A stretch of DNA of 64,000 bases. Source: Nemertoderma westbladi (lineage: Eukaryota > Animalia > Xenacoelomorpha). The DNA is taken from contig JAUCBJ010002656.1 of assembly GCA_032718475.1 (NCBI GenBank), positions 1 to 64,000 of the forward strand, read 5' to 3'. Below the pieces are notes generated by a model. The model worked only from the letters and a program-made list of their open reading frames with translations, was not told the DNA's origin and made no database searches. The translations under genes were made by a program, and so were the position numbers. Positions 3,001-49,750 of this stretch are shown here, in pieces. How positions within the stretch are numbered: the stretch's first letter is position 1; the number at the start of each line of letters is the position of its first letter.

Positions 3001-6000
3001 CTTTGCACACCTTATGTCAGAGAAACAGGTTCGCCGTTGGTGTCCTTGTCTGAGGCAATTATAACATAACCGCTTATCCCACATGACTTCGCGTCTCTCC
3101 GTTAATGATTTCTTTAGAAATTCATCACACCTATTCAAATGGTGGGTCCCGTCACACAGCGCACATTTCGGTTTGATGTTACTTACCTTATTTTGAGTCA
3201 CATTGTGTACACTTGCCTTTTCTTCGGGCTTTCTCACCTGAATTCTCTTGGGAGACGTGGGAGGAGTTTTTCTTACCTGTTCCCTCCTGTCATTTGTTCG
3301 AGACTTGAATTTACTTACCTGATCTTTAGGCATTTTATTCACGTAATAAGACCTATCCGTGTCCTTCCCGCTATCTTCTCCTTGAGAAGTTTGGCTTTCG
3401 CCGTCATCAGTATAACATACTGGTGTTACCTTTCTCCTAGAGACGGGTTTTTCACTTACCTTGCTTTCCGGTGTCTTCTCTCTGGACAGTTTCAGGAGCT
3501 GTAATTTCACTTCTCCATCTAGGAATGACATGAGATCAGCCATGGTAGGGTCTCGCCGTTGTTGTTCCATCATATATAACACTTTCTTATCCCAGCGTGT
3601 ACCTACTCCACCTTTAGGTAAAGTAGAAGCCACTGCTCTAATAACCATAGTGTTCTGATACTCATGAGACTTACCTAGCCAATCTAATTGTCTGCAGATC
3701 TCCTGGATCTCATCGGAAAACTCGATAATTCCGCTACTAATAAACTTTCGGGGCGCTACTAACTTTGCATACAAGTACCCAGCGATATTATTCCTATAAA
3801 CATACATGATGTTTAGTGTATCCCAAACTTGTCTTAATCCGTCTGGATGTCCAATAAACTTTAACGCCATTAACTTGGGAGATCCTTCCAAGCACTCGAT
3901 GAGGTATCTAAGTTTTTCTCCATTAGATAGTACAGAGTTCTGTATGTTATCTTTGTAATATTCATTAAAAGGTAACCATTTCATCTCATCTCCATTGAAC
4001 TTGACGATCTCTCCCACCTTTACCGCTTGCCGGGCTTCGGTTCTAGCCATTTGACGCGTAAAACTTTCTTGGGCCATCGTGTTATTTAATATCGAGTTAT
4101 CGGTATATAAATTTCTCGGATTATGATCCGGTCTATAGGGAATATCATTATCAACAGGTCTATAATTACCCTTAATAGGGTTCACTATAGGAGTTTCTAC
4201 TTCGCTAGCAGTATAGATGCGTGTAGGCTCCACACCTTGCGCATGAGATACTTCAGACCTAACGGGTTGACACATTGTTACAGAGGGTGGTGGTATACCC
4301 TTTTTTAAGTTTACTAATTTAACGCGTTCTAACGCGATACTTTGCTGCACTTCTTGCAACTCTAACTTACTTTCCCTCACTGTTCCTTTTAAATGTTGGA
4401 CAGTCCCTTCCAACTCTCGGACCTGTTGGGAAGAGCGTATCCGATTCTCCTTCATCTCTCCTAGGAGAATATCCATCCCCCGCCGTCTCTCGTCTACCCA
4501 ATCAACCGCCGAAACGGGATCCGCCAACGTCGTAGCGGGCAGACGAGGGACAACGGGCGACAAATTTGGAATATTTCGCTCGGGGTCCAGGACCTGAACT
4601 GTCTCCTGGGCAGTTCTACGGGGCACAGGTAGCTTAGTGCTATGCAGAGGGAATTTATAGGTAGCTTCAGGGAGCACAGGTGTATCTATTACCGAAGGGG
4701 TGATTTCAAGAACAGGCCTACTTATTTCAGGCTCATCTACTATAGTAGGGAGTCTTTCTATTGTAATTATTTGGTCTGTGGGTTCTGTACTCTCTAAGTT
4801 GGTGTTATTTAGTTGCCTTCTAACAGCTGGAGGCAAATCAGGCAATTTCTGACGGTGGAATGTTCTTTTACGTCTGCTTAGGCGGGATCGATTTCCTCCG
4901 CCTTCAGTGTCGGTGGTATCGCCTTCCTCAGATGATGTATAACCTTGTCGTTTGGGAGTAGATCGATTCATCATCTGCATATTACTAGCTGTTAACTGTT
5001 TATTAAAGTTATCTTGCCTCTCTTGAAGATTTTCCAACTCTAGTTGGGTTGTCTCTTCAGATGCCCTCCGTTCTGCTTCTGCCACTGCTATCTTTCTTTC
5101 CGCTTCTGCCGCTGCCGCTTTTGCCTCTGCCGCTGCCGCTTTCCTTTCCGCTTCTACGGCTGCAGCTGCCGCTTTTGCCTCTGCCGCTGCCGCTTTTATT
5201 GCTGCAGCTGCCGCTTTTGCCTCTGCCGCTGCCTCTGCTGCCTTTCTTTCCGCTTCTGCCGCTGCCACTGCCGCTGCTGCTGTCTTTCTATCTTCTATAC
5301 GTTTTTTCCTTACTTGTTCTTCCTTTTCTCTAGCGATGCGGAGTTGTTCATCGAATTTAGCTTGGTTCGCCGCTAACCTATCCACATCAATCGCATCTAA
5401 CACAAGTTTGGCTCCTTCGCTATTAGGGCTAAGTCCCTCTAGCCTTCTCCTCAACTCTTCATCTCCCAAAAAACGCTGATAGTCTGACAGATAGATATCA
5501 ATGGCATCCTTCTTATGCGGTTTCTCTGCCGTCGCTTCACTTTCCACTTGGGAAAAAGTAGCGTCCGTCGATTCTCCATGGGTTGAGCGCTCCTCCAACT
5601 GAGCTTTCCACTGAGCTGCTCCTTGAACCTGGCGTCTCACCCTTTGAAGCCAAGTCTTTACGGCAACTTGCGACGACGTGTCTTGTCTTCTTTTAGAAGC
5701 CTCCTCAAAGGCGGATAAGATTAGCCTAATTCGCAGGACTCTTTCTCTAACTTGATAAAGCAGCTGTCCCTGCTCTTGAGGTCCTTGAGGTTGTTTAAAC
5801 AGTTGTCTTTCTACTCGCTCCATAGAGCTGAAGAATCCCTGTGCGTATCCGGCTGCGGACCTCTTCCATACAGCTGGATCGATGGTTTCCTTGGCTACTC
5901 CCATCCGGTGTATGTCTTCCCAGGCAGCTTCTGATAAATCAAACGGGAGTCCGGGTCCGGGGAAGTTCCATTGCGACTCGACCATGGACTTCAGTTCTTC

Positions 6001-6459
6001 TCTTGTGTATCCAGCATAACTATCTCTAGTTGAACGCTGGCTTCTCGCCCAATCGATCTGGTGTTTTTCCACAGCGATCAATAACCTAGTGAGTACGGCT
6101 GCAGGAAGGATGAGAAGGGGATCCGTATAAACCGCATCCGTCATCTCTGCTCCGCGCTCAGGTGTCAGCTCTACAGTATCCTCACTACTGGAGCTGCTGG
6201 GCCGCTGAGGAATAAGTTCTTGACTCGCGGGTTGTTGCTGTTCCGCTGCTTCTTGGTCCCGCTTGACCTGAGCTCGAGTGCCTATGATAGACCTACGATG
6301 TTGGACTAGCCTAGGTTCTGTTATTACTACTGGAGGGATGACCTTCCTCACAGTGGGAGGTGAACTGAATTTACGACCAGACGGTTGTACGTCTCTATCT
6401 GAGTCGCAGATAGTTACATCTAATATACTGTCTGACAGGTTCTGCTTAGTATCAGACAT
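1..6459 (-). CDS. BEL/Pao Gag-Pol polyprotein, 3'-partial (>2150 aa)
   Basis: ATG at 6459. Motifs read in one frame: Gag core IVKFNGDEMKWLPF (~4010); three zinc knuckles CALCDGTHHLNRC / CYNCLRQGHQRRTC / CAKCGAKHHILLH (~2980-3165); protease NALLDSGST (~2640); RT IYMDDN (~1150); RNase H QWRHCPGTINPADIASRG (~250-300). It is absent from the ORF track, consistent with no stop before the window edge. Confidence 0.93.
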   Translation of the reverse strand, partial: MSDTKQNLSDSILDVTICDSDRDVQPSGRKFSSPPTVRKVIPPVVITEPRLVQHRRSIIGTRAQVKRDQEAAEQQQPASQELIPQRPSSSSSEDTVELTPERGAEMTDAVYTDPLLILPAAVLTRLLIAVEKHQIDWARSQRSTRDSYAGYTREELKSMVESQWNFPGPGLPFDLSEAAWEDIHRMGVAKETIDPAVWKRSAAGYAQGFFSSMERVERQLFKQPQGPQEQGQLLYQVRERVLRIRLILSAFEEASKRRQDTSSQVAVKTWLQRVRRQVQGAAQWKAQLEERSTHGESTDATFSQVESEATAEKPHKKDAIDIYLSDYQRFLGDEELRRRLEGLSPNSEGAKLVLDAIDVDRLAANQAKFDEQLRIAREKEEQVRKKRIEDRKTAAAAVAAAEAERKAAEAAAEAKAAAAAIKAAAAEAKAAAAAVEAERKAAAAEAKAAAAEAERKIAVAEAERRASEETTQLELENLQERQDNFNKQLTASNMQMMNRSTPKRQGYTSSEEGDTTDTEGGGNRSRLSRRKRTFHRQKLPDLPPAVRRQLNNTNLESTEPTDQIITIERLPTIVDEPEISRPVLEITPSVIDTPVLPEATYKFPLHSTKLPVPRRTAQETVQVLDPERNIPNLSPVVPRLPATTLADPVSAVDWVDERRRGMDILLGEMKENRIRSSQQVRELEGTVQHLKGTVRESKLELQEVQQSIALERVKLVNLKKGIPPPSVTMCQPVRSEVSHAQGVEPTRIYTASEVETPIVNPIKGNYRPVDNDIPYRPDHNPRNLYTDNSILNNTMAQESFTRQMARTEARQAVKVGEIVKFNGDEMKWLPFNEYYKDNIQNSVLSNGEKLRYLIECLEGSPKLMALKFIGHPDGLRQVWDTLNIMYVYRNNIAGYLYAKLVAPRKFISSGIIEFSDEIQEICRQLDWLGKSHEYQNTMVIRAVASTLPKGGVGTRWDKKVLYMMEQQRRDPTMADLMSFLDGEVKLQLLKLSREKTPESKVSEKPVSRRKVTPVCYTDDGESQTSQGEDSGKDTDRSYYVNKMPKDQVSKFKSRTNDRREQVRKTPPTSPKRIQVRKPEEKASVHNVTQNKVSNIKPKCALCDGTHHLNRCDEFLKKSLTERREVMWDKRLCYNCLRQGHQRRTCFSDIRCAKCGAKHHILLHAEFDRNSPNQVSDSELHVQFSDVNDTDQSEMEGFYTDEFSDENESCYMINTAVYRALTYEKDTDNDFTLTTSERQPSWKEPSSNVGIREFPVVQVRVHGPKRSYVVNALLDSGSTGTFIDKELAENIFAGQPKFQTKLNMSGIMQVWKSTITADYYVGALSTPQDELGEHSIRSVKMVAIKNFATTHADLYNWDEDESIQHLNIPRFQTDYPGVQILIGQNAHEALETLEKRPAQPQPLQTYAVRTRVGWYFTGPSHRTLRERLPQERVCQVSEWEDDASEGDDSTEGIPYSSDNDDVHQLFDEENTIDLLKENEAWQNQVNLCQLLYPSEREAYNDELNDVIERCNAKTRDEHAVRFFTQEAVEPNSYDKALSVEEERAKQIQETTTRFLKDQGRYEVGLPFRKREPKFINNRPLAEKRIAQLHRRLTANSSAKAMYQTQLEKFINKGYAERVPEETPVTERTYYLTHHYVPKPGKPNEVRVVFDGSALYMGQSLNSELLPGPNLLQSLLGILLRLRQYSIAFASDIEGMFLQVKVLDRDRDSLRFLWWPEGDLNQKPVEYWMTIQAFGIISSPSNACSVVRTTAEDNREAFSKEVIDNIMRDIYMDDNLKSLPSVEEAIEVAKGTVECLKRGGFRLTKFTSNSREFLESIPAEDRGAKDLDLIKDDLPETKTLGLKWDTERDILFFQLKQRDNPVRTKRICLSILSTYFDPLGFISPVILIARSLVQQMWLENHSWDDPLKGELLKKWMKWEDSLPAIEDFIISRSYFGHVLPTYSYQLHVFGDASDMGIGIVAYLRVETPDGIKVALVTSKALINNKLKVPRAELKAALYATAIGRNVTEQIDYTLEKTVYWTDALLVLEYITNEVCQFSVFVTNRVAIILSRTTMDQWRHCPGTINPADIASRGATPKELVNTPEWLGGPDFLYREEEEWPPHLTTAEIRQAKGAEKVKPKTRASKSKLFKPTVDLSVLFTSGDDALDQKPTATTK

Positions 6460-7764
6460 GACTATGTATACCGTTGAATGTCTACTGCTATATTACAGTC
6501 TGAGCAAGTCTAGTAACTCAGTATTAACTGCTAGCCTAATAATTAATTACCGGTACTGCTACTCAGTGTAGCGTGATATATATATAATATATTAGAATAC
6601 CGGTATGCTTATAGTATATATAACTATTATTACAGACTAGGTTTATCACAGAATACCGGTATAATTTTAGCACAAATATATATAAATATATAATAGGCCT
6701 ATCGGGAATACCGGTATACAGCTTACAGTTTGTAGTATATATAATTCTGGACTAGAATTAATTACAAGTACCGGTATAATTTCAGCCTAAATTTATAGAA
6801 ATAAAGATAATAGGCCTATCGTAAATACCGGTATATCAATTATTTTAAATAATTGAATTTCTGAACTTTAGGGTTACTTGGTTACTTTAACTTACTTTAT
6901 TACCGTTATTTAAGCAGTAGTCCAACTGATATTGAGACCTAATTGTTATATGGTAGGCCTACTATTTATAAATCGTTAGATTTGATTTATAATATATATA
7001 TACCCGTTTGAATGGGTTTAGCCAATGTTTGAAATAAATGTTATTATTTCTGGGGTAATCACTACACAAAGCGGTACGCTTTCAGTGAAGTGTTACGTAT
7101 AGGATACTAAAACAAATAATTCTAATTTACCTAAGTTACTTAATACTACAAATTACGTACAATTCGGGTGAGATTACAATCTCTAAATAAACACAAAAAT
7201 TTACAAAAACACAAAATACGAAATTTTTAGGGTAATTTTACAAGAAGTCTACAAACCAGCCTAACAAAGGGTTAGAATTCTGGTTATTACAACGGACAGG
7301 GTACTACGGTATTTGAAATAATAAGTAGTAGTAAATACACTGCGTTGTCCAGATAGGAAAATACCACCGCCTGACGACCTATAGCCGTATCGCTATAGGT
7401 TCTACGTTATGTATCACGGAGTGTTCCTACCTAGAAGTTAATAGAGCTAATCGAACGTGCCTATCAACCACTTTACAACACAAATATAATGTCTACACTA
7501 ATTACTTTCGGAAAGCACTGTACACTAAACCCTAAATTAGGTACGAGTACTTGTACAACAGATAATCAGTAGTTAAATATACTTGAACAGCTAAAAGAAC
7601 CACGGCATCTGCTGGAGTGACCGCTGCACAAAATCACCAGTCTTTACCTACGCCAAGCAGCCCGTGTAGTACCGGGGTTAATTTAACTATAGCGGTATGT
7701 ATAACAAACACAATTACTGTAGGAACAAACTTGGGGAATGAATGTTGCGAATAATCGCATAAAC

Positions 7765-8345
7765 TCTGAATAATAAATATTACGCTACGCGTACAAACTA
7801 CTCAAACAAAATACAGACCGAACACTGACAGACTACTATCAAGCCTAAACAAACTACAGGACATGCAGACTCCGAAATGATTAGGGAGTATGCGTTCTAA
7901 CCCAGTAGTACGACTTATTCTTTAGTTGGGGGTTTACCTTACAGCGTTCGCTGCCCCTACTTCCTAACCGTACTTAATCGGACAAGTGATCTACACACGC
8001 TGCAATCCGTTCAGACCCAATGACAGCCAGACAACTATCCAGCCTACAAATTATCTAAATAAATATTATACGCTACCCGTACAGACTTACACAAACAAAG
8101 TACAGACTAAACGATGGCAGACTACTCTCAAGCCTAAATAAACTACAGGACATGCAGACTCCGAAATGATTAGGGAGTATGCGTTCTAACCCAGTAGTAC
8201 GACTTATTCTTTAGTTGGGGGTTTACCTTACAGCATTCGCTGCCCCTACTTCCTAACCGTACTTAATCGGACAGGTGATCTACACACACTGCAATTCGTT
8301 CAGACTTAACAGCAATCAGACAACAGCTCAGCCTACAAATCGTCT
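7765..8345. repeat. ~296 bp tandem duplication in the BEL 5' leader
   Basis: The block aagcctaaa...caggacatgcagactccgaaatgattagggag...gttcagac occurs at ~7840-8015 and again at ~8130-8305, nearly identical. Confidence 0.9.
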
Positions 8346-8758
8346 GTACAATCTGATCAGGTTTACACGCCTTCTGTTCAATACTGGCCTACAAATAAAT
8401 AAAACTTGACAGAAATAAGTAAACCATATAAAGGAATAAGGGGTGATCAATCCCTAATCCCTTAAACAGCCTACCGGTATACAACAATCAAATCGAATAA
8501 TACTAGTGTACTTATACGGAAGTACCGGTTAGAACAGCTAGGCCTACGGACCTACAGAAGTACTGGTTCTGGCAGTTGGGCCTACTGACCTACGGCAGTA
8601 CCGGTTCTGGCAGTTGGGCCTACTGACCTACAGATGTACCGGTTCAGGTTTACCGGTTGACCGGTACTTTCAACTTTATTGCTTACTGCAACAAAGAAGC
8701 TATATCCTTTAATGTTCGCGCTTTCAGACCTTTGGCAGTTCAACCCGCCAAATTAAGA

Positions 8759-9887
8759 TGTCTTCTAGATATTAAATCGCTTTTTAGCCTATGACAAGTA
8801 TTTGATTCACTACACTAGTCGAAACCAATCTGTGCGCGACCATTCACCCGCTGGATATTCGCGGGAGATTGGGTTCGACGGTTTAATTTTATTGCTATGT
8901 AAGCCTAATGTATTATTCGACTGACAGTATTATATAATCTCTGACAATATTATTCACCTTCGGGAATATTAACAGTTCCTTTAGGACGTGGCGCTTTATC
9001 TATATAAACAGAGTTATGACTTAAACTACTCACAACGATATGGCTCAATTATAATTCACATATATGGCGCATTCTTTAGGAATTGCTTCTTTAACAGACT
9101 CACTCATACGCAATGCTGCACAATACTGCACACTAATCTGCCAATCTTCACTGATTTTAGTCACATATAAAAGGAACACAGACTGACTCATGTAGGGTCT
9201 ATCAAATAACATTAGATTCACTTCAAACCACTTTAACATAAGTCACAATCGTTATTGGTAACCTTTCTCTCTTACCTTCGGTATATCAAGAATATTGGGT
9301 GTCGGGGTTATTTCTCGTTATTCCAATATAATAATTCATCAACAAATATAATGAATAACCGACAACAAATAGCAGTATGCAGTATTCACAGATCAATCGT
9401 GCCAGTTTGTTTTGAGTTAAGACAATCAGTCAGTTAAAGGATATATGTCCTTATAATTAAACCTACTAGTGTTGAGCTAAAAAGCAGAAAGCACAAAACA
9501 CTAAAAAGCCGTTCTTTCGTGGCTTTGAAAAACTCGTGACTACTGCTCTATACGAGGATACCAACTACCCTTATTCCACGAAACTCCCGTTCAACACAGA
9601 GAAAGAGCAGTGAGATAGGAAAATTTCAGTTCAGTAGCTCTGTGATAGGTCAAAATCAAGGCTAACTCAAATTCTATTGGGAGATACAAAAACAAGGCTA
9701 TGACGCAACCTCCCTAGGCTTGTTGGCCGATTAAACAGAGCCCAGATGCCTGCGTACAGCAAATCAGCCAATAAGCTGGTAACTTGCACTATTTTTAGCT
9801 ATAGATCACTTTGAGAGTATTCTTAGCGACTGGGGGGGAACTGGCCAACAAGGCAAACGAATCAGTTATCCCACAAAAGCTTTTACA
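8759..9887 (-). repeat. 5' LTR of the BEL element (~1129 bp)
   Basis: The minus strand starts TGTAAAAG (9887) and ends AGAAGACA (8759), followed 8 nt later by PBS-like TGGCGGGTTGAAC. Both ends match the LTR at 40608-41717. Confidence 0.88.
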
Positions 9888-36432: not shown

Positions 36433-36689
36433 GTATGAATATTCTTACTAGTTTACTCTATCTTACTCTACCTAGTATCTTACTTTATTATTGGTGTTAT
36501 GGGTGATTGAGTGGTTTTATAAATATTGTATTGTAGTTCTGCTACACCTCACACTCTGGGGGCGCTATACTGTATTTCCGTAGGGCTAGGCAAAAGGTCA
36601 GGTTCTGTGGTCGGTACTTTTCGAGTCTATATCGGTTACGGTAATTCTGAATTGATCTTAGTGAAAAGCACGTGATATAATGGTGATAT

Positions 36690-38850
36690 TGAAAAATATC
36701 AAGATATGACAAATATCGAGTGTAAAAATAACGCGAGTAAAAATATCAAGTGTTGAAAAATGACGATAATAATATCGAGAGTTCAAAAAATATCGAGAAT
36801 AAAAATATCGAGAGTAAAAATATCGAGTGTTGAAAAATATCGAGAGTAAAAATATCAAGTGTTGAAAAATATCGAGTATTGAAAAATATCGAGAGTACAA
36901 ATATCAAGTGTTGAAAAATATCGAGAGTAAAAATATCGAGTGTTGAAAAATATCGAGAGTAAAAATATCGAGTGTTGAAAAATATCGAGTATTGAAAAAT
37001 ATCGAGAGTAAAAATATCGAGTGTTGAAAAATATCGAGAGTTGAAAAATATCGATAGTAAAAATATCGAGTGTTGAAAAATATCGAGAGTAAAAATATCG
37101 AGTGTTGAAAAATATCGAGTGTTGAAAAATATCGAGAGTAAAAATATCGAGTGTTGAAAAATATCGAGTATTGAAAAATATCGAGAGTAAAAATATCGAG
37201 TGTTGAAAAATATCGAGAGTTGAAAAATATCGATAGTAAAAATATCGAGAGTAAAAATATCGAGTGTTGAAAAATATCGAGAGTTGAAAAATATCGATAG
37301 TAAAAATATCGAGTGTTGAAAAATATCGATAGTAAAAATATCGAGTGTTGAAAAATATCGATAGTAAAAATATCGAGTGTTGAAAAATATCGAGAGTAAA
37401 AATATCGAGTGTTGAAAAATATCGAGTATTGAAAAATATCGAGAGTAAAAATATCGAGTGTTGAAAAATATCGAGAGTTGAAAAATATCGATAGTAAAAA
37501 TATCGGGTGTTGAAAAATATCGAGTGTTGAAAAATATCAAGTGTTGAAAAATATCGAGTGTTGAAAAATATCGATAGTAAAAATATCGAGTGTTGAAAAA
37601 TATCGATAGTAAAAATATCGAGTGTTGAAAAATATCGATAGTAAAAATATCGAGTGTTGAAAAATATCGAGTATTGAAAAATATCGAGAGTAAAAATATC
37701 GAGTGTTGAAAAATATCGAGAGTTGAAAAATATCGATAGTAAAAATATCGGGTGTTGAAAAATATCGAGTGTTGAAAAATATCAAGTGTTGAAAAATATC
37801 GAGTGTTGAAAAATATCGATAGTAAAAATATCGAGTGTTGAAAAATATCGATAGTAAAAATATCGAGTGTTGAAAAATATCGAGTGTTGAAAAATATCGA
37901 GTGTTGAAAAATATCGAGAGTAAAAATATCGAGTGTTGAAAAATATCGAGAGTAAAAATATCGAATGTTGAAAAATATCGAGTATTGAAAAATATTTAGA
38001 GTAAAATATCAAGTGTTGAAAAATATCAATAGTAAAAATATCGAGAGTAAAAATATCGAGTGTTGAAAAATATCGAGAGTAAAATATCGAGTGTTGAAAA
38101 ATATCGAGAGTAAAAATATCGAGTGTTGAAAAATATCGAGAGTAAAAATATCGAGTGTTGAAAAATATCGAGAGTAAAAATATCGAGTGTTGAAAAATAT
38201 CGAAATTAAAAATATCGAGTGTTGAAAAATATCGAGAGTAAAAATATCGATAGCAACAATTTTTTTAATAAGGGTTGTATGATAATTTTTTTCCTAGAGA
38301 TGTTCTAGTACAAAAAAATGTGTTCTAGAACAAAAATATTTATCAACATTGGTAGCTTACACGTGTTCTATAACATTTATAAAATGAAGTAGAAAATGCT
38401 AGCTGTTTTAAAAAATTAAAAATGTGATCTAGAACTAAAAAATGTGTTCTAGAACAAAAATATTTATCCAAATTGATAGCTAGCACTTCTTCTACAATAT
38501 TTATTAAAAAATAGCAAAAACTAGCTAGTATAATAAATCTGTAAATTGGGTACCCAAGGTGTATTAATGCCATTTATTTGCGCGTGCACTGTTGTATCCC
38601 ATGCACTGCAATATTGTCCCATAATTCTAAATAAAATGCACGCAAAATGCAATATTTTTTGCTCTCGATATTTTTCAACACTCGATATTTTTCAACACTC
38701 GATATTTTTCAACACTCGATATTTTAACTCTCGATATTTTTCAACACTCGATATTTTTACTCTCGATATTTTTACTCTCGTTATTTTTACTCTAGATATT
38801 TTTCAACACTCGATATTTTTCAACACTCGATATTTTTACCAGGTGGCACG
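36690..38850. repeat. Foldback-like element: array of 15/17 bp units (AAAAATATCGAGAGT / AAAAATATCGAGTGTTG) at 36690-38250 with an inverted short arm at 38650-38840
   Basis: The tandem units are seen directly. The same units recur in reverse complement after a ~400 bp core. Confidence 0.85.
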
Positions 38851-38857
38851 ATAATAG

Positions 38858-40607
38858 ATTTACGTTCTTGTAATCAAAGCCATCTAATGTTCTGGCTAAA
38901 GTCTGAAACTTCTACAGAAGCACAGAAGAATTCTAAGCCGATGTTCTGCTGCTTAGAAAATAGTAAAACATAAACCGTAATGCATTGCGCGGTTTTACAT
39001 AGGCCCTTGTCAGAAATAAAATGAAAATCGCTCTGATTGGCTGAGCTAGGCAGAACAAAGAAAGGTTCCATGTGTACAGAAAATCAGCTGACAGATGTCG
39101 TCATCTGAGCTCCAGTCTTTTAGAGTATTATGCGCATTGCGGCAAAAATGACTTGTTATGTCCGCCAAAGCACCTACACGGTACATTACAGGGAAAAATG
39201 ACTTGTTATGTCCGCAAAAGCATTTACACCGCTCCCAGAAAATGGGATTTAAGTCTATAAAATATATAAAATCACAGTTTCTAAAATATAAAAATACTCT
39301 AAACAGTTAGTCCTTCTTATGTGAACGGCATTTACGAAGTTTTTTGAGGCTAGCAAGAGTCCTTTTCTCTTTGGGGCGAGCCACATTACTAGGAGGGCTA
39401 TAACTCCTGGGTGAAGGGTGCAATACAATTGCATTGGAAGGTTTAGGGTTACGGTCGGTGTATCCGCCGGTTGAGGTACCTGGTTTATCGATATCAACCT
39501 CAGTGGAGTGAGGTCGAACAACCTTCAGAGCGCGTTTCAAGACAGCAGCTCTTACTGGTCTCTGACGAGTCGTCTGCACGAGAGCGGTAGGTGGACTGTG
39601 AGTAGTGAGAAATTTCCTCGGTTTGATGGTTCTTTCCAACTCGCGTTCTCGGGCTCTATCGGAATCGATATGCTTCTCCTCGAGCTGATTTTCCACCGCT
39701 TGTCGTTGGAAGCATTTGTCCAAAACTCTTGCAGAGAGTAGGGTCGTCCGAGTTTGATATCTTCTTCGAGATTCCGGATTTCCCGATCGAACTGAGGTAA
39801 AGCTAATTATTTTACCGCTTGGACTTGCTGCTGCAATTTACGTTTCTCTAAACAATTGTAGGTTCCTTTTCCGATCTTTTGTCGAATAGTGTCTAACGCG
39901 TTTCGTTCAACTCTCTCCTCCACCTCGGTGACAGGTTGTATCGGGGTTAAACCGGGACGATTATACGGGTTGAACGGCGATATTAAATGTCCGCGTCCCA
40001 ATCCGGCTAGGTAGGATGGGCGAATATCTAGAGAGCCCACTACTGGAGTGCCACGGACTAATTGTTCAGGTAACACTAGATCTTTGAACAGTGAGTACAG
40101 TTCAGGAGGATCCGTCATACTATTAGGATCAAGAGTCTGAGGTCTCACCAGGGAATGAGGAGGTCTGACCGAGTATTCCGGAACTCTGATCATAGGTTTA
40201 TTTAAGGATCGTTTGAGCTGAGCGAGCATAGGTGATACGTCGAACAAGTTTCGCTCGAAACTCCCGTAAGTATAGCGAGTAAAACTGTGTTTAGCGCAAC
40301 GTCTCCGCGGATGTTTATGTCTTTCCGTGTGTTGGTTGAGTCTAGGGCATTCATCGTAATAATACCAAAGACGCACGTCTTGTAGGGGAAACGCGGGTGA
40401 TCTTTCTCCAGTTTTACAATGCTTCTCTCAAGAATTCCAAATATACGTTGAAGTCACTGCGTTTATCCGGTTCTTTAACGTCTTCTCTTTTGAGTCTATT
40501 TCGAATAGAATTTTTCGTGTTTGATTTCCGTTTTTGTTCCGACTCTGCTGGGTATGATATTTGTTCGCGCTTTCAGACCTTTAGCAGTTTAACCTGCCAA
40601 ATTGGGA
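38858..40607 (-). mobile_element. Non-autonomous deletion derivative of the BEL family (PBS, deleted extra ORF, PPT, partial LTR 38858-39228)
   Basis: PBS region at 40562-40607 matches 8713-8758. Pieces are homologous to 45620-45745, 44690-45440 and 41340-42145. PPT GGGAGCGG precedes TGTAAATG at 39228. Confidence 0.85.
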
Positions 40608-41717
40608 TGTCTTCTAGATAATAGATCGTCTTTAGCCTATGACAAGTATTTGATACACTACATTAGCCGAAGCCAGTCTATGCGCGATCATTCACCCGCT
40701 GGATATACCCCGGGAGACTGGATTCGGAAGCTTAACCGTATTGCGGGGTAGGCCTACTGTATTATTCGACTGATCGTAATATATATAATCTCTGACAAAT
40801 ATTATTCACTTTCGGGAAATATTAACAGTTCCTTTAGGACGTGGCGCTTTAAATATATAAACAGAGTTATGACTTAAACTAGACACAACGGGATGGCTAT
40901 AGATTCACGTATATGGCGCATTCTTTAGGAGATGCTTTGTTATCAATCACAATCATACACAATACTGCACAATGCTGCACACTAATCTGCCGACCTTCAC
41001 TAATTTTAGTCACATATAAGGAGAACAACAGACAATACGTGTAGGGCCTATAAAATAGCATTAGATTCACTTCAAACCACTTAATGTAAGTCGCAATCGT
41101 TATATGTATCCGATCTCTCTAACCTTTAGTATATCAAGAAGATTGGGGTGTCTGATTATTTATCAGTATTCCAAATATAATATTCCATCAACAAATATAA
41201 TGAATAACCGACAGTAAAAGCAGTAAAATGTTAAGGTATAAATTGATATGATCGTTTTGGTTAGTATGAGTTATGATAACAGATATATGTTCTATAATTA
41301 AGCCTACTAATGTTGGGCTAAAGACTGAAACACGGAGGTTCCAAAGAGTTGTAGGCTGTGGACAAAATCACATACTGACTCAACTCCACGAGTTTCTATA
41401 TACAATCTCTAACACAGAGGCAAAAAACGCTCTGATTGGTCGACCAAACAAAGAAGGAACAGAGAACAAAGAAAAGCTACACGTGTACAGCATCAGCTGT
41501 TAGCCGTCGTCATGGTAGCTACACTGTTTACAGAGGATTTGGCGCATTGCGTCATAAAATTGCGAATTATGTCCGCTAAAGTACACATACAGAAGAAATG
41601 GCTTTTATGTCCTCTAAAACACCAGTACAGTAAGGACACGGCCTTTTATGCCTGTTAAACCAACTACAGAGTACTTCACGGGGAAAATAACCGGCTAATT
41701 CCGCAAAAGCCTTTACA
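40608..41717 (-). repeat. BEL LTR (~1110 bp) flanked by a PPT on one side and a PBS on the other
   Basis: The minus strand reads GGGAGCGG|TGTAAAGG...AGAAGACA|tcccaatt TGGCAGG. Homologous to 8759-9887. Confidence 0.88.
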
Positions 41718-41795
41718 CCGCTCCCAGAAAATGGGATTTAAGTCTATAAAATATAACAAATCACAGTTTCTAAAATATAAAAATACTCTAAACAG

Positions 41796-44700
41796 TTAGT
41801 CTTTCTTACGCGGACGGCGTTTACGCAGTTTTTTGAGGCTAGCAAGAGTCCTTTTCTCTTTGGGGCGAGCCACTTTACTAGGAGGGCTGTAACTCCTGGG
41901 TGAAGGGTGCAATACAATTGCATCAGAAGGTTTAGGATTACGATCGGTGTATCCGCCGGTCGAGGTACCTGGTTGATCGATATCAACTTCAGTGGAGCGA
42001 GGTCTAACGGCCTTTAGGGCGCATCTTAGGACAGCAGCTCCTACGGGTCCTTGATGGGTCGTCTGGACAATGGCGGTAGGCGGACCGTGAGTGGTGAGAA
42101 ACTTCCTTTGTTTAATGGTTCTTTCCAGCTCGCGTTCTCGGGCTCGATATTCGTAGGGCCGTCGAGATACTTCCTGTAACTCAGGGTGCGAGTTGATAAA
42201 TAAATCGCCATACTCAGGGTCTTGACGGATGTAATTGATCAAATGGTATGAAGTAATATCGTTAGGATTGACGTTCCTAAGATATTTTCGAACAAATTTG
42301 GTGGAAATACACTCACCAACACGCTTCATTAGTTCGTAACTCGGTGTGCGTGTTTTTTGTTCCACAGACGCGAATAAATAAGGATGGAACGCGTAAACTC
42401 CCTCGTAAGAGCGTCCAGGGTAGTAGCAATGGCGGGACTCATAATGTAAATCCGCGTTCGCTTCCCAAGCTCGGATGTAGCGCAGGGTAATCATCTCATC
42501 TACGCTTTCTAAATCGCGGTTAAAGGGGCAATTATAACTGGCATGTCCTTTAAGTTGACAGTGGTGGCATTGGGTCATAAATTGGGGGCAGACTGCAAAA
42601 ATATGCGAGTTATTAAGTCTGCTATACGCACAATAGATCTCTATCATCGGTTGTTCGTGGAAATAGGAGCAGGGTACGTCTGAGTCCATAGGGGTGAAAT
42701 GGTCTCTCGATGCGCATAATCGACAACGTTTTCGAGAAACATAGTTGGCGTGTCGATAATCGTATGCGGTGAGACATTGTGGACCTTGATACCACTCCAA
42801 GACGTAATCGTTATCGCTGCTCCGGGGCGCTGTAGGCTGGATCGCTTCAGACTCTAAGCATATTGGTTCGTCTTCCAATTGCATAGCTGAGGTAGGTGCG
42901 GCTGTCTCCGCAAGCGGACCCACTGTCTGAACTTCCACGACAGAATAACCCGTGGCTATTCGGGCTCTTTGTATAACAGATGAATGTAAGTTCTGTATAC
43001 AAACGTCCTGAAAGAAGGCAAATCCCGCGCTGTTTAGCTTCTCCGCAGCTGAGTCTCTTAGGCTGAGTTTGGTCAGAGCGCGGTCCTTGAACTGACTATC
43101 AACGTTACGGAACGGAGTCAGAAAGCGCCTGAAACATTCGAAGCGGATGAATTTATTGTGTTCATCTAACTTGGCGAGTTTGGTTCCAAGTATTAAGGGA
43201 TGGGCGCGTATGGTACGACTGCACACATCGGCGAGCCAACCGGCAAGTGCTGCGTTTTCAAAGATCGTGTATATAGCTAAGGAGGGACGAAGTGGAACAC
43301 TCATAAAGCTATACACGGCGCCAGGTGCGGTCAATGGTCCATCAAAGTATAAACGAGAATAATGATCTCCATATACTTGTTGGTAATTTATAGGATTTCC
43401 AACCTTGAAATTCCATCCGTATTCTTGAAAGGCAAGATGTCCGATGGAGGTTCGTTGTACTTTAGTAATGCCGATGGGTGTATTTGCATACATAGTGCGG
43501 AAGAAACCTCGGCCTTCTGCCCAGGGAGCAATCAGCTGAGTATCAACGAAGGGGTATGGAATGTTCTCCATATTCCGGAAGTCGTTTTGTAGGTCTCCAT
43601 AAACAGCTGAGCCGATTTTAAGGATTCTTTCGTTAAACAACATCTCGAGCACGGGCTGGGGTAACATTGATCCATCGATACCCATGGCCGGTTTGCGCTC
43701 GGTGTCGGCGACATAACGCTGCGCGAGTTCGAATTGTCCATGTCGGAGTTTCTTTTGTGTCTCAGTAAGAGTCTCAAAAGAATAATCAATCACATCGGAA
43801 CACGCTCGAGTAAATACGTGGGTAGAACCAGCGAGTCCTCGTATGTGTATCATCCGCGTAGTTCCCAGTTCTCCAACTGGAACGCTACCTTCGTTGTCGT
43901 AAGTGACAACTCCATACATCTCGATAACGTTAAGAGTCTCGTTCCACTCTTTAGTGGCATTTTCGAGGGTCATTCCCACTGGATGCCACAAGGTAGCGCA
44001 TTCGCTAGCATTAGGTAGGTCTCTATACTTTAAATATTGCGTAGTATATGTTTCCACATCTCCATATCGTTGTATTCTTTCCTCCTCGAATAACACGTCA
44101 AGATTCCAGTGTACTAAACGAGTTTTGATGAATCCATCAAGATTATACGGAGGTATTGTTTCTTTCTCTATTCTGGAAACATTGTATGGTTTTCGAAATG
44201 AGTTTATTTTAACTAACTGATCCAGATGTTTATGCAGTTGTTCGAGTTCGACAAGATCGAGAGGATTTATGAGTGGCAGAAACCTCAGACTATGTGTAGG
44301 ATCTTCCGGTTTTACCATGTAATATTGTGTTAGGTTGACGTAATAAGGGTGATCTTTGATCCCATAAAACGAGTCTGGTAAAGGTCTAGCGCGTATGTTA
44401 ATATCGTGTACCATGCGACGGACAAGATCCGCTCTATTGTCCGGAGGTTCAACGAGTATACCATCGACACGAGCGGCTTCGATGGGCGGATGTTGCAACA
44501 TGGGAGCGTCAGCGATAAGATCTCGAGATCTTAGGTTGATATCAACCGGTTGGGGTTGTACCGTCGCGAAGAGTTTGTCTCCGAAATGGGGAACCATCGA
44601 GGGATGAAGGATGGTTTTAGAGTAGAGATCCGTCATAAGGATTTGAGCTTCGGGTTGAGCTAAAGCTGCTTCTTCTCTCTCATCCATTTCTATATGTCTC

Positions 44701-45230
44701 TCCTCGAGCTGATTTTCCTCCGCTTGTTGTTGTAGACGCTCATCTAGGAACTCTTGTAAAGAGTAGGTTCGTCCACGTTCGATGTCCTCCTCGAGATTTT
44801 GTATTTCTCTATCGAACTGGGGTAAAGCTAATTCCTTCACCGCTTGGACTTGTTGTTGCAATTTACGTTTCTCCAAACAATCGTAAGTTCCCTTTCCGAT
44901 TTTCTGCCGGATAGCGTCTAACGCATTTCGTACGACGCTCTCTTCGACTTCCGTAACGGGTTGTATCGAGGTGAAGCCGGGACGGTTGTGCGGGTTAAAC
45001 GGCGATATTAGATGACCGCGTCCCAATCCAGCTAGGTAAGGTTGGCGAATATCTAGCGAGCCTACTACCGGAGTGCCACCGATCAACTGTTCGGGTAGCA
45101 CTAGATCTTTGAACAGTGAGTACAGTTCGGGAGGATCCGTGATAATATTAGGATCAAGAGTCTGAGGTCTAACTGAGGAATGAGGAGGTCTGACCGAGTA
45201 TTCCGGAACTCTGATCATTGGTTTGTTCAA
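41796..45230 (-). CDS. BEL extra ORF, main part: DEDDy-like 3'-5' exonuclease + CCHC zinc knuckles
   Basis: ExoI-like GVVTYDNEG (43887-43913); ExoII-like LPQPVLEMLFNERILKIGSAVYGDL; FVDTQLIA; SIGHLAFQEYG; ExoIII-like VPLRPSLAIYTIFE (~43257); knuckle CHHCQLKGHASYNC (~42527-42569). Confidence 0.75.
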   Translation of the reverse strand: MNKPMIRVPEYSVRPPHSSVRPQTLDPNIITDPPELYSLFKDLVLPEQLIGGTPVVGSLDIRQPYLAGLGRGHLISPFNPHNRPGFTSIQPVTEVEESVVRNALDAIRQKIGKGTYDCLEKRKLQQQVQAVKELALPQFDREIQNLEEDIERGRTYSLQEFLDERLQQQAEENQLEERHIEMDEREEAALAQPEAQILMTDLYSKTILHPSMVPHFGDKLFATVQPQPVDINLRSRDLIADAPMLQHPPIEAARVDGILVEPPDNRADLVRRMVHDINIRARPLPDSFYGIKDHPYYVNLTQYYMVKPEDPTHSLRFLPLINPLDLVELEQLHKHLDQLVKINSFRKPYNVSRIEKETIPPYNLDGFIKTRLVHWNLDVLFEEERIQRYGDVETYTTQYLKYRDLPNASECATLWHPVGMTLENATKEWNETLNVIEMYGVVTYDNEGSVPVGELGTTRMIHIRGLAGSTHVFTRACSDVIDYSFETLTETQKKLRHGQFELAQRYVADTERKPAMGIDGSMLPQPVLEMLFNERILKIGSAVYGDLQNDFRNMENIPYPFVDTQLIAPWAEGRGFFRTMYANTPIGITKVQRTSIGHLAFQEYGWNFKVGNPINYQQVYGDHYSRLYFDGPLTAPGAVYSFMSVPLRPSLAIYTIFENAALAGWLADVCSRTIRAHPLILGTKLAKLDEHNKFIRFECFRRFLTPFRNVDSQFKDRALTKLSLRDSAAEKLNSAGFAFFQDVCIQNLHSSVIQRARIATGYSVVEVQTVGPLAETAAPTSAMQLEDEPICLESEAIQPTAPRSSDNDYVLEWYQGPQCLTAYDYRHANYVSRKRCRLCASRDHFTPMDSDVPCSYFHEQPMIEIYCAYSRLNNSHIFAVCPQFMTQCHHCQLKGHASYNCPFNRDLESVDEMITLRYIRAWEANADLHYESRHCYYPGRSYEGVYAFHPYLFASVEQKTRTPSYELMKRVGECISTKFVRKYLRNVNPNDITSYHLINYIRQDPEYGDLFINSHPELQEVSRRPYEYRARERELERTIKQRKFLTTHGPPTAIVQTTHQGPVGAAVLRCALKAVRPRSTEVDIDQPGTSTGGYTDRNPKPSDAIVLHPSPRSYSPPSKVARPKEKRTLASLKKLRKRRPRKKD

Positions 45231-45321
45231 GGATCATTTGAGTCGAGCGACCGTAGGGGATACGTCGAACAGGTTTCGCTCGAAACTCCCATAAGTATAT
45301 CGTGTAAAACTGTGTTTATGT

Positions 45322-46044
45322 TTATGTCGGATGTTTATGTCTTTCCGTTTGCTGATTGGGTCTAGGGCATTCGTCGCAGTAATACCAAAGACGCATGTCC
45401 TGCAGGGGAAACGCGGGTGATCGTTCTCCAGTTTTACAATATTCCTCCATCTGTTCGAAGCTATCTGGGACGACAGGTAGCGGTCGATCGGCGGTAAGAT
45501 ACATCATAGTGAAATAGAGTCGTTTGAGCTCTATCATAGGATCATGATGTATACCTTGAGGATATCGAGTTTCGAGATTTTGTTGACTGGCAATATTGAG
45601 GTATGTCTCTCTCAGGAATTCCAGATAATCGTTGAAGTCGCTGCGTTTATCCGGCTCTTCAACGTCTTCCCTTTCGAGTCTGTTTCGAATAGAGTTCTCG
45701 TGTTCTATTCTCGGTTTATCGTTCCGACTCCGCTGGGTATGATATTTAAATAAAACCATTTCCCTTTCGGTGTCTACGTCGTCCGTATCGTGTAAATCGA
45801 TAGGATGGCCAGTAGTTAAGAAGTCCATATACATACCATTACGATGCGTATAGCGAGCGGTGAACTTTCTATAATCCAATTCACGCGTAAGTTGCTCCGG
45901 GGACATTGGCGGTTCGATATAACGACCATCATCCTCCGTAGTAGTTGGACCAGCGTCGCCGCGTATCAAGCTATCGACAAACGCTTGTAAAGGTAGAGTA
46001 TATCGCTCCCTGATACTAAGATCATCTTCTATCAACTCAGTCAT
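45322..46044 (-). CDS. BEL extra ORF, N-terminal part (separated from the main part by a 5 nt frameshifting lesion)
   Basis: The paralogous copy 39807-40376 reads straight through HKHPRRRCAKHSF...NKPMIRVPEY and joins the two ORFs. Confidence 0.75.
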   Translation of the reverse strand: MTELIEDDLSIRERYTLPLQAFVDSLIRGDAGPTTTEDDGRYIEPPMSPEQLTRELDYRKFTARYTHRNGMYMDFLTTGHPIDLHDTDDVDTEREMVLFKYHTQRSRNDKPRIEHENSIRNRLEREDVEEPDKRSDFNDYLEFLRETYLNIASQQNLETRYPQGIHHDPMIELKRLYFTMMYLTADRPLPVVPDSFEQMEEYCKTGERSPAFPLQDMRLWYYCDECPRPNQQTERHKHPT

Positions 46045-47676
46045 ATCTGCTATGAGTTTATCAATATTATAATGAGTTTATATATTAGGCTAGCGGGCGT
46101 CGCTGCCTACCCCTCTTTTGCCCCCGGACAGTGCAAGATCCTCAGCGCCGATGTACCGTCGTCGCTGTTCTTTCGCCAATGATGTAGCTACACAACGACA
46201 ACGATAACCGGCACAAGTCACTCCACTGTCCGTCCCAAAGGCTTAGATGTACTTCAGGTTCTTTCTCAAGAGTTAGGGCTACTTTCACAATTGCGACTAG
46301 CTACTGTAAACACACTTTAGCAGTAACATTCACCTATGAACGCACAAATTCAACACAACTGCCACAAACTGTACACATTCGGGCCATTTGTCCGTTAGTC
46401 AGTACCTTCCAGAATGTCACTTTATTTATTATGTATCCTTGGATACTAGCAGTGCGCTATTTATTCCCTATGCTATTCAATGGGGCAAGCTTTCTATTGT
46501 TCTTTTAACTCACTTCTAATTCTAGCGTGGTTGTTGCTATGGTGACATTATGGAAAGCTAGCGGTAGAATTAGGGTAATTCTCATGCATACAGATCTGGG
46601 ATGCTATTTAATAGTAATTCTTTAATTGTCAATATCCTCTCTATACATGATTTTATGAATTTTATCGGCTATTGACTATATATTGGAGATTCTCGCACAC
46701 TAATACACTTAATAGAGTGAATCTCCGCTCCCATGATCTATTAATTAATGGAATTTTGGGAATGTTATAAATTGTATAAAAATGACAATTTATTAAATTC
46801 ATTAAAATATATGAATTTAAATTTATTCCCGTAAATTTTATTATTTAATGTTAAATAGACACAATTTTATTCCAGAACATGTCTGGGGACTGGGATCCTT
46901 GATTCTAGGAATTTTGACCTTTTAAGAGTATCGGTAAGTGCTACGATATCTTAATCGACTAGAATTTTAAAGGATCTAAAATTTGACAGATTTTGTAAAT
47001 ATTAATAATTAATATTTAGGATGGGCACCAGTTTATTCCAGAACTTGTCTGGGGACGTTAACCACTGATTCTAGAATTTGTCTTTCAAGTATATCGGTGG
47101 GTGCTGCGATATCTTAATCGACTAGAATTGCAGATGGTCAAAGGGTTTAACAGATTTATTTGCGTTGTACGCTACTGTTAAAAGGACATCACGCTACTAT
47201 ATGTATTATTCAATATACGGTATGAGAGCAATATCGCACGAAGCAATGTCAGTGAGAAGAGGCAAGTCGATTCCAAGGTCTACCCAGAGCTTGGTTTAGC
47301 CGAGACACGAGGATCTGAATTTTGCATTCCTAATACTCTGCTTACCAATAATACTTAAATATAGTAGGAGCTTTATTGTACTTTAATAAGTACGGACATT
47401 TCATCTTACTGTAATTACGTATTTGTAATGTAATACGTACAGTAAGGAAAGGGAAAAAGAATTATTTCTCGCCGTCGCACTAAATATATAATATATAAGT
47501 AATTAAGTAATAAACGCGAATATATATTGCACTAATCTACTAAATAATCGCTAAAATAACATTCTACTAAATAAAATTAAAGAAAACGATTATAATAAAA
47601 TTACATAATAATATATACATAAATATAAAAGAATAAAACAAATACAAATATAGTCATACACCTACTCCAGCCGTTG

Positions 47677-48251
47677 TTAAGTTGGGGAGTCCCTAGATGT
47701 TTGTTGGATTAGGGAGGTGGTCGTGGGAAGAGTATCTTGCCTCCCATAGTTTCCGGAGAGTTCTCTGTCTCTTTCCAGTAAACATAAGCGACCAACTGGG
47801 CGATTGAGCTGCTGTGTCTCGAAGACAATTCCCGGTTTCTTGAAGTTACGTCGCATGACGACGAGTTCTACCGATCGCACCAAACCGTCATCCGAGATGT
47901 GAGTCTCGATGATACGACCTGTCTGCCACCGCTTACGTGGAAGATCTACATCCACAATAAGAACCATGTCTCCAGCGCTGACGTTTTCTTGCTGCGCAAA
48001 CCACTTAGTTCGAAGTTGTAGCGTGGGCAGATAATGTTTTTCGAAATGGTCAGCGAAACGACCGGATAACAACTGCATGAGTTGCCAAGTTTGCCGGCAG
48101 TATTCGTCTCCGTCTGTGATTTCCGATTGTGGGAGCATGGCTACAGGTTTCTTCAGTAGGAAATGCGCGGGTGTTAGCGCTTCCAGGGAATCGGGACTCG
48201 ATGAGACTGGCATAAGCGGTCTCTCGTTGAGATAGGCGGCGATTTCCTCCA
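47677..48251 (-). pseudogene. BEL/Pao integrase C-terminal fragment
   Basis: EIAAYLNERPL...ALTPAHFL...YLPTLQLRTKW...GDMVLI...PRKRWQTGRI...DGLVRSV...RPVGRLCLL. Confidence 0.92.
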
Positions 48252-49750
48252 TTAACCCTATTAAACCCGGGGGGGGTCAATATGACCCCCCCCCCCCCGT
48301 GGTTTTTTTATTATAGTTCTGAAACCAACGCAGTTGGGAATCTGAAATTTTATGACTTTTCCTAAAAATCTATTGTCTTCCTAGTAGTGAAAACCGTTTT
48401 CAAAAATATTGGGTACTTTTCGAGTTATAGCACCATTTTTTAACCCTACTTTTGGCACTTTTTTTGAGACGTTTTTTGAAAATTACATTTCATTAAATAT
48501 GAATTGTAACATCGCTATTTTTGATTTACACCGGTTTTTTGGTGTTAGAAATTTGATGGAATTCATATAAATTGACTTAGAAATTTCAAACTTGTTTTTT
48601 TCGGTGGGTGCCAAATTTTGGTGCCAGCACCAAATTTTGAAATAAGTCAATTTTGTAAATTGATCGTTTGAAACTTGTTTTTTACGCAATTGGGGTTTTT
48701 TGGGTTTCTGGATTCGATGAAATATATACGAGTTGCACCAAGCGTATCAAACTTGTATTTTTCGGTGCTGTGTGCAAATTTTGGTGCTAGCACGAAATTT
48801 TGAAAATCCATTCAATAGATAAAATTGCTTGTGACAATTTATTTCTTGCGTTTTAGAGGTTTATGGCTGTTCTGAATTCAATGGAAAATATAATTATCGA
48901 ACTAGACATCTCAAACTTGTATTTTTCGGATGTGGGTGCAAAATGTGGTGCTAGCACCAAATTTTGAAAACCATCAAATATATCAATTGATTGTGTCGCC
49001 TTGTTTCTTGCGTTATACGGGTTTGTGATGGTTCTGAATTCAATGGAATCAGTAAAAATTTCATAAGAGTTCTCAAACTTGTATTTTTCGCCGGTCGGTG
49101 AAAATTGTTGTGCCAGCACCAAATTTTGGAAAATATGCAAATTGATAAGTAGATAGTATCACCTTGTTTCTTGCGTTATACGGGTTTATGAGGGTCCTGA
49201 ATCCAATGGAATCAATAAAAACAGCACTGGACATCGCAAACTTGTACTTTTTGGTGATGGGTACGAAATTTGGTGCTAGCACCAAAATTTGCCAAATTAC
49301 GCCTAAAAATACAAGTAGCAATGATCTGGCATATTAGAAATGTATTCCATTAGAATCAGCGCCCTCGAAAACCTGAAAATGTGAATTTATAGCATCGTAT
49401 AAGTGAATTAAAAATTTTGTGTTCAAACTGAAAAGTGCTGGTTACTTGTTTTTTTCATTTTTTTCCTACGCAGAGAGGACTAAACAGCCATTTATAGTAA
49501 TCATATCATTTTTTAATATTTTTCAATGTATTTTGCACCCCAGAAAACCAGTATTAAAAAATAATTAGCCTAAAATGTAACTTTCAAATTTGGTGAAAAT
49601 TGTGCACTACTTATAATTTTGGTGCTGCAATATAACCACCCCAGTACATTTTTTCGAAAAATTTTTTTTTCGGTCGGATCCAGACAAGTGATACCTACGT
49701 ACAAACAAAAAATCAGACGTTTTCGTAAATATTTGTAGATTTTAGAGGGG
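48252..49750 (+). mobile_element. Non-autonomous DNA transposon with piggyBac-like left end and ~162 bp internal tandem repeats
   Basis: Begins TTAA-CCCTATT...GGGGGGGGTCAATATGACCCCCCC exactly where the integrase breaks. Unit aaacttgtatttttcgg...ggtgctagcaccaaattttg at ~48588, 48750, 48914, 49075 and 49239. The matching right TIR was not found. Confidence 0.65.

Follow-up and report, generated by a model that had tools for sequence, protein, structure and literature searches.

A DEDDy-type 3'-5' exonuclease gene in the position of a third open reading frame (ORF3) is known from the Juno1/2, Vesta2/5 and Athena/Terminon elements of bdelloid rotifers, a precedent that a first-pass annotation of the DNA treated here had mentioned and that is indeed published (PMC5408684). 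In the sections of that paper on which we draw, the rotifer ORF3s are RNase D-like genes in the env slot, without transmembrane (TM) helix and with an altered acidic motif. Their hosts are gypsy-like and rotifer-specific lineages, which are not described there as BEL/Pao, and the authors leave activity and function unproven. Here, an ORF3 of this kind is reported from a BEL/Pao element of Nemertoderma westbladi (GCA_032718475.1). The window, i.e., the whole stretch of DNA that was analyzed, comprises 64,000 nt (contig JAUCBJ010002656.1, positions 1-64,000, forward strand), and ORF3 is located on its minus strand at 46044-41796. It is a multi-copy family gene under purifying selection. Judged by its sequence, the encoded domain is a divergent DEDDy derivative rather than a canonical member, because Glu is found at the ExoIII position of the last Asp.

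Members of the Belpaoviridae (PMC8742986) have long terminal repeats (LTRs) of 0.2-1.2 kb with TG...CA ends, a short purine tract (~10 nt before the 3' LTR) and a BEL-type integrase. The locus resembled them in these features. On the minus strand the integrase tail (stop 47677) was followed by a 1.6-kb spacer, ORF3, a purine tract and an LTR starting at 41717, and the same-strand placement in the env slot noted in the first-pass annotation was confirmed. The tract was short, had 7 of 8 purines and was the same in both copies of the gene in the window, called copy A (described so far) and copy B. The LTR at 41717-40562 is the 3' LTR, the only one that copy A holds. Element C, a sister element located at 1-9887 of the window, has a similar 5' LTR, and the similarity stopped at the same CA end; a shorter reading of the 3' LTR would end at 41311. 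At its start the integrase piece has the motif E-x4-LNERPL. A file of BEL/Pao consensus domains (PMC3118150) contains LNSRPL 247 times and LNERPL once, with integrase ends in the three passages inspected. The designation as a BEL/Pao retrotransposon was thus borne out by the BEL-type integrase tail and the LTR homology, but not for a whole element, because gag, reverse transcriptase (RT) and 5' LTR are absent from copy A and only ~190 amino acids (aa) of the integrase are left. Gag, protease and RT are visible in element C with its homologous LTR, which contains DUF1759, Peptidase_A17 (Pao peptidase, E 2e-36) and a weak RVT_1 match, again as in Belpaoviridae. The third gene of that family is env-like (PMC8742986), whereas ORF3 is predicted to encode a soluble nuclease-knuckle protein. 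In agreement with the first-pass annotation, neither a signal peptide nor a TM helix was indicated, as no hydrophobic segment was present in ORF3 (maximal Kyte-Doolittle 19-mer values 0.44 and 1.19).

The ORF of about 1400 aa that had been proposed between integrase and LTR was found at the expected position and spans 1416.3 codons between Met 46044 and the stop at 41796, but in copy A it is not a single ORF, being split into pieces of 240 aa and 1145 aa. The larger piece is open and contains the nuclease-like and knuckle regions in full. Copy B (39307-40562) has one continuous frame through the position of the break, and thus the family gene probably encodes one protein of about 1400 aa. ORF3 is intronless, and many diverged copies exist.

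Copy A appears to be nested within the ORF3 of the older copy B. An alternative arrangement, a tandem pair with a common 407-bp LTR, was considered and dropped in favor of the ~1.15-kb LTR and the nested order. The LTR of copy B is itself interrupted by a 17/32-bp tandem array (36689-38250). A comparison of copies, which had been suggested as a check in the first-pass annotation, revealed ratios of nonsynonymous to synonymous divergence (dN/dS) of 0.09 (177 codons), 0.16 (116 codons), 0.11 (36 codons) and 0.15 (43 codons), 372 codons in total, at a dS of 0.4-0.7. Copy B is devoid of the nuclease and knuckle regions, and, therefore, selection on the nuclease was read from contigs of sequencing runs mapped to 43220-43930. 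Among the 40 variants listed there (91 further rows exist), 35 were synonymous, against an expected synonymous share of only 0.28 (p 4e-15), and none of the 40 altered D446, E448, D547, Y655 or E659. No insertion or deletion in this region reached 25%. The skew was smaller in the wider ORF3 span, with 15 synonymous and 14 nonsynonymous changes among the differences listed (n = 29); many of these were seen in nearly all contigs and are thus probably private to the decayed copy A.

The stretch from integrase to LTR (38800-49000) was covered in 30 of 30 bins in all four runs, which stem from four studies and carry two organism labels. Three contigs of run X5 depart from the window sequence at 48256, indicating that other copies continue differently there. 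In some contigs the nuclease region is missing through internal deletions (42876-45677; 41958-44687), a state also found in copy B. Contig joints between 40300-40520 and 45330-45720 were also considered as deletions, but this was rejected, because they reflect the two paralogous copies.

The exonuclease motifs named in the first-pass annotation were all present and in order (YDNEG 43901, ILKIG 43625, GDL 43598, FVDTQLIA 43550, SIGHLA 43448, YTIFE 43271). Relatives of the protein were rare. A HMMER search over 1.84 billion representatives retrieved a sole match, P0001 (E 4e-7), a protein of 648 aa. Its exonuclease-like N-terminal half has 30% identity to ORF3 over 150 aa, and three canonical CCHC knuckles are found at its C-terminal end, in the same place as the ORF3 clusters, so that both proteins have a common exonuclease-then-knuckles layout. 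P0001 is a singleton on a 9449-bp ENA contig, a size compatible with a retroelement. The similarity of the two proteins past the knuckles and in the linker was within the range of chance, as 422 and 483 of 500 shuffles, respectively, were as good. Word-indexed protein searches returned no relative of ORF3, and with P0001 as query P0001 alone. Scans for ORF3-like loci retrieved none in metagenome contigs and viral contigs and one chance match in plasmids, and a PHROGs search gave nothing better than E 0.087.

Comparison with profiles pointed to RNase D. In NCBIfam only RNase D TIGR01388 was matched (E 0.003, confined to the ExoII stretch). With an RNase D profile of 55 sequences, P0001 aligned at ExoI, ExoII and ExoIII. 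A two-protein profile of ORF3 and P0001 matched 110 of 301 bacterial genomes at E<=1; the ExoII stretch was covered in 101 of the 117 matches, and RNase D made up 29 of the 30 best loci. The residue D547 was paired with the Asp of P0001 and the reference Asp of ExoII in 79 of 79 trial alignments. At ExoIII, the spacing P-L-x6-Y-x3-[E/D] is common to ORF3, P0001 and RNase D, and, counting from P-L, Y655 corresponds to Y151 and E659 to D155 of RNase D; the Glu at the last Asp had been read correctly in the first-pass annotation. D446 and E448 fell on ExoI when PolA sequences were included in the alignment, and they also aligned with ExoI of P0001. The top matches in the ESM Atlas, which serve as leads only, were PF01612 clusters (0.88 and 0.86). 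The ORF3 observation is more than chance, because the dN/dS values are low, P0001 is homologous, and the RNase D profile scored 20.0 bits with ORF3 compared to a maximum of 7.1 bits for 400 shuffles.

For fold prediction alignment A4 was used, which contains ORF3, P0001, 18 PolA and 10 RNase D domains and was picked among 79 trials for lining up the motifs. The resulting model had a predicted local distance difference test (pLDDT) value of 66 and a predicted template modeling (pTM) score of 0.64, a three-strand start with D446 and E448 on strand 1, and the helices of ExoII and ExoIII in place. An RNase H-like DnaQ fold is thus indicated by the sequence profiles as well as by the model, the latter resting on the chosen alignment. 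In Foldseek the PDB list was led by WRN, EXD2, Egalitarian and RNase D, and the viral list by 3'-5' exonucleases of giant viruses. The best 23 VIA matches were all DEDDy-type exonuclease domains, with Z scores of 13.0 for Klenow, 12.5 for diDNase, 12.0 for WRN, 11.7 for RNase D and EXD1, 11.6 for Nibbler and 11.2 for TbRND. As these are within about 2 Z units, no subfamily is singled out, and the specific affinity to WRN/EXD2/Mut-7 proposed in the first-pass annotation was not upheld. The group of Pol I proofreading, RNase D, WRN, EXD1/EXD2 and Nibbler/Mut-7 domains is like ORF3 in fold and in the order of ExoI-III (Z 11.6-13.0, root mean square deviation (rmsd) 2.9-3.4, 150-163 positions aligned), and ORF3 differs from it by an identity of only 12-17%, two insertions and the Glu for the last Asp. 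Also in contrast to Pol I, WRN and RNase D, no polymerase, helicase or HRDC match accompanies the domain, HRDC having been sought with Pfam at E 10 in aa 400-760. The tree was built from 30 rows with bacterial references (every second or sixth taken, L109 omitted, without eukaryotic or rotifer rows). It united ORF3 and P0001 in one long-branched group (100/98) beside PolA (94/84, sub-threshold), and, with its bacterial references, identified no donor of the ORF3 domain.

Several results weigh against an exonuclease gene of a BEL/Pao element. A Pfam scan of ORF3 gave no exonuclease match, and sequence searches of the PDB retrieved no solved nuclease, only nucleocapsid and Air2 knuckles. In RNase D-only alignments D446 and E448 were not placed on ExoI (both aligned in 0 of 64 trials), and the ExoI stretch alone, compared between ORF3 and P0001, was equaled by 134 of 500 shuffles and is not significant. 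The canonical ExoIII Y-x3-D is replaced by Y655-x3-E659, P0001 also having Glu, and an alternative one-gap register in MAFFT sets Asn660 at the catalytic Asp. The single-sequence fold was unusable (pLDDT 31). As A4 was selected for lined-up motifs, the fold match is partly circular, and it signifies compatibility rather than independent proof. The fold check recommended in the first-pass annotation had a mixed outcome, because WRN, EXD2 and RNase D did lead the Foldseek list, but no match was below E 0.001. Two of the three knuckles are irregular and located ~165 aa away from the nuclease domain. P0001 is known as a protein only. Among the contig pieces listed none bridges integrase and ORF3, and element C leaves the window before the integrase, so that its ORF3 slot lies beyond it. 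An RNase H-like fold was predicted, the acidic residues were unchanged in the variants listed and the ORF was present elsewhere, in each case the opposite of what had been named beforehand as speaking against the proposal.

The three Cys/His clusters proposed in the first-pass annotation were recovered, but only one is a canonical CX2CX4HX4C (42569-42528, C889-C902). Of the other two, which precede it, one has a longer spacing (C837-x2-C840-x4-H845-x9-C855), and one is devoid of the second Cys (C868...H877-x4-C882). The basic tail, a putative nuclear localization signal, was also verified (41834-41814). A DEDDy domain followed by tandem CCHC fingers is found in the trypanosome RNase D TbRND (PDB 7c42, PMC7797062). 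As described in the parts of that paper used here, the exonuclease domain binds and cleaves RNA much better in the presence of the fingers. Unlike ORF3, TbRND is a cellular mitochondrial enzyme of 390 aa that has four regular fingers and a linker of 28 aa. Compared to the ORF3 model it gave a Z of 11.2, an rmsd of 3.8, 172 aligned positions and 12% identity. In sequence it is thus no closer than other DEDDy proteins, and the common layout is probably convergent. The top ESM Atlas cluster for P0001 has a TbRND-like layout.

By analogy, the ORF3 protein may trim RNA 3' ends, most likely those of the element's own RNA intermediates, a proposal that we favor tentatively and rate somewhat short of an even chance. 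The zinc knuckles would bind single-stranded RNA and feed its 3' end into the active site, as the TbRND fingers do, and two-metal catalysis would proceed with Glu replacing the last Asp. RNA rather than DNA would be the substrate, as suggested by the knuckles and the analogy with the trypanosome enzyme. The deleted copies drop the nuclease domain, and thus the protein would act in trans. The primer site of element C (see below) points to one candidate substrate, a self-primer that would be trimmed at its 3' end.

The alternative that fares best is counter-defense, to which we give a clearly smaller though still appreciable chance. An active exoribonuclease would degrade or mis-trim host piRNA/siRNA or dsRNA ends and weaken silencing of the element. 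This would agree with a third gene that is dispensable in BEL/Pao generally (ICTV: gag, pol, sometimes env) and yet strongly conserved here. Two proteins of the piRNA pathway, EXD1 and Nibbler, are among the fold relatives, but the fold matches single out no piRNA enzyme. Many such enzymes are blocked by the 2'-O-methyl group that animal piRNAs carry, and this weighs against counter-defense. In favor of it, overexpression of TbRND depletes small guide RNAs, according to the sections of PMC7797062 considered.

Somewhat less probable is a pseudo-nuclease, in which the change from Asp to Glu (or to Asn in the alternative register) abolished catalysis and the protein acts by binding RNA, as an adaptor or chaperone in the manner of EXD1, Egalitarian or Maelstrom-type derivatives. 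ExoIII is non-canonical in both ORF3 and P0001, an Asp-to-Ala exchange at the equivalent site nearly abolishes TbRND activity (PMC7797062, in the portion used), and inactive DEDD derivatives are raised as a model in the rotifer paper (PMC5408684, likewise in part). In contrast, carboxylates are kept at four of four positions in two proteins that are only 26-30% identical, while dead copies usually lose them, and Glu retains the carboxylate. A literature search for an Asp-to-Glu change at the ExoIII Asp found no publication.

A DNA-end editor, which would trim cDNA 3' ends or mismatches in reverse transcription or before integration like Pol I proofreading, is improbable. A Pol I-like loop is present between ExoII and ExoIII, the pattern Y617...G-x5-L-x-F630 mirrors F473...F486 of E. 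coli Pol I, Klenow was the top VIA match, the tree set ORF3 and P0001 next to PolA, and the C-terminal tail is basic. However, PolA supplied 18 of the 28 reference rows for folding and thus biased the match, and the tree support does not reach the starred level, with long branches and without eukaryotic references. Furthermore, the PolA profile scored only 0.2 bits with ORF3, compared to 20.0 bits for RNase D (WRN/NrnC-like, 3.1 bits), and the copies differ at many sites, so that high fidelity is not evident. Of the functions proposed earlier, RT proofreading ranks last in likelihood. Very improbable indeed is a location of ORF3 outside BEL/Pao, as a separate repeat or captured host gene adjoining a BEL remnant: copy A lies incomplete among nested repeats and none of the listed contigs spans the interval from integrase to ORF3, but strand and order (integrase, ORF3, purine tract, LTR) agree, the tract and LTR start are the same at the ends of both copies, the LTR is homologous to the 5' LTR of the gag-pol BEL/Pao element C, and ORF3 has many diverged copies and no introns.

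The primer site described for Belpaoviridae is an 18-nt complement of tRNA-Arg/Gly (PMC8742986). In element C, in contrast, no TGG followed either candidate LTR end, so that a tRNA-type primer site was not found there. Instead, the 12 nt directly adjoining the LTR are an exact reverse complement of a segment (9445-9434) 442 nt into the LTR of the element. In the LTR region at about 430-450 nt, A, B and C differ from one another. Such a match was equaled by 1 of 5000 Markov-shuffled LTRs and by 0 of 542 other leader positions. This self-complement is a possible signature of Tf1-type self-priming; the case concerns one element, with the LTR end inferred from similarity. In Tf1 and Tj1 (PMC4600332, in the parts considered) the primer site just past the 5' LTR likewise pairs with an LTR-internal segment; these elements belong to S. 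pombe and S. japonicus, whereas element C is a single element of an animal genome. It is conceivable, if unlikely, that a BEL/Pao lineage swapped tRNA priming for Tf1-like self-priming and that its own knuckle-guided exonuclease trims the self-primer flush. A caveat is that Tf1 is considered to need RNase H alone. A 6-bp hairpin near the LTR end, read by eye, is kept in both LTRs (8730-8750; 40580-40600, minus strand), with G-T/A-T and G-C/G-T exchanges between them. The gag-pol ORF of element C (1-6492, minus strand) encodes at least 2164 aa, with a gag extension of ~830 aa N-terminal to DUF1759 that contains an Ala/Glu/Lys repeat.

The coordinates are collected in Table 1. Further features of the window include TTAA-CCCT ends at 48252 and 30637 that resemble piggyBac-type termini. 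The one at 48252 severs the integrase and belongs to an insertion that we take to be piggyBac-like, the far end of which was not located within the window. A long interspersed nuclear element (LINE; 20710-30001, minus strand) encodes endonuclease and RT (1035 aa), and its 5' 3.1 kb (ORF1 and a further upstream coding stretch) are tandemly duplicated with 98.5% identity. An intronless gene for an AMP-binding enzyme (12164-13912, minus strand, 582 aa, E 1e-58) lies amid repeats. Tandem arrays consist of a 37-bp satellite of ~8 kb (49752-57987), a 41-bp array (59335-60549) and three copies of a ~1.55-1.75-kb unit with 94-97% identity (31179-36123). Probable host-gene exons with coiled-coil and proline-rich stretches are found at 61429-63720 (plus strand), without a Pfam match over the cut-off.

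Table 1. Features of the ORF3 locus, copy B and element C in the window
Feature	Position	Strand	Evidence
BEL/Pao-type integrase C-terminus, ~190 aa, 5'-truncated pol	47677..48252	-	DUF5641 E 8e-21
Insertion with TTAA/CCCT end, interrupts integrase	48252..49750	.	partly resembles 19979-20488
AT-rich spacer pol to ORF3, 1.6 kb, holds ~165-bp tandem duplication	46045..47676	-	covered in 4/4 runs
ORF3 N-terminal piece, 240 aa from Met (open frame 45322-46077), no known domain	45322..46044	-	dN/dS 0.11-0.15 vs copy B, 79 codons
ORF3 break: frameshift near 45320 and in-frame stop 45234-45236	45234..45330	-	copy B in one frame across it
ORF3 C-terminal piece, 1145 aa, open; exonuclease-like domain, knuckles, basic tail	41796..45233	-	
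DEDDy-type 3'-5' exonuclease-like domain, aa 425-672; D446, E448, D547, Y655, E659	43218..43961	-	
Three Cys/His clusters, last a canonical CCHC knuckle	42528..42725	-	zf-CCHC_3 E 4e-4, below Pfam cut-off
Basic C-terminal tail, putative nuclear localization signal	41796..41834	-	kept in copy B
Purine tract ahead of LTR	41718..41731	-	identical in copy B (39229-39242)
3' LTR, probably 1156 bp, TG...CA	40562..41717	-	identity to 8713-9887 at 870/1080 aligned bases
Copy B: older, internally deleted ORF3 remnant, purine tract, partial LTR	38850..40561	-	84-87% identity blocks
Sister BEL/Pao element C: 5' LTR 9887-8713, 2.2-kb leader, open gag-pol	1..9887	-	LTR homology
Candidate primer site of element C, 12 nt after LTR	8701..8712	-	exact reverse complement of 9445-9434

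No exonuclease ORF in a BEL/Pao element came up in searches of the open literature, the scope of which did not extend to Repbase, Dfam and subscription papers; the main texts of PMC3118150 and PMC13524379 do not contain the word exonuclease. A DEDDy ORF3 as cargo is known; new are the BEL/Pao host, the far larger protein, the Glu at ExoIII, the knuckles and the clear purifying selection. The sections of the rotifer paper used here (PMC5408684) give the motif as DEED, while the last position is Glu in the present case, a comparison made by description only. They report a Cys-His-Cys motif in some ORF3s and mention no knuckle array, and they describe no significant departure from neutrality within the genome, in contrast to the strong selection seen here. 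With ~1400 codons the present ORF3 is also much larger than the rotifer ORF3s as described there.

Taken together, what nuclease cargo does in LTR retrotransposons has been a standing question since the rotifer ORF3s were described, and here a strongly selected gene of this type is found in a different superfamily. A repeated gain of cargo that combines exonuclease and knuckles is also suggested. Because an RNA-binding module like that of TbRND is present and the fragment is intact in copy A, the question becomes testable with one soluble fragment. Self-priming in BEL/Pao, if true, would extend a mechanism known from Tf1-like elements, and trimming of the self-primer by the ORF3 protein, if true, would mean that a retrotransposon encodes its own primer-maturation enzyme.

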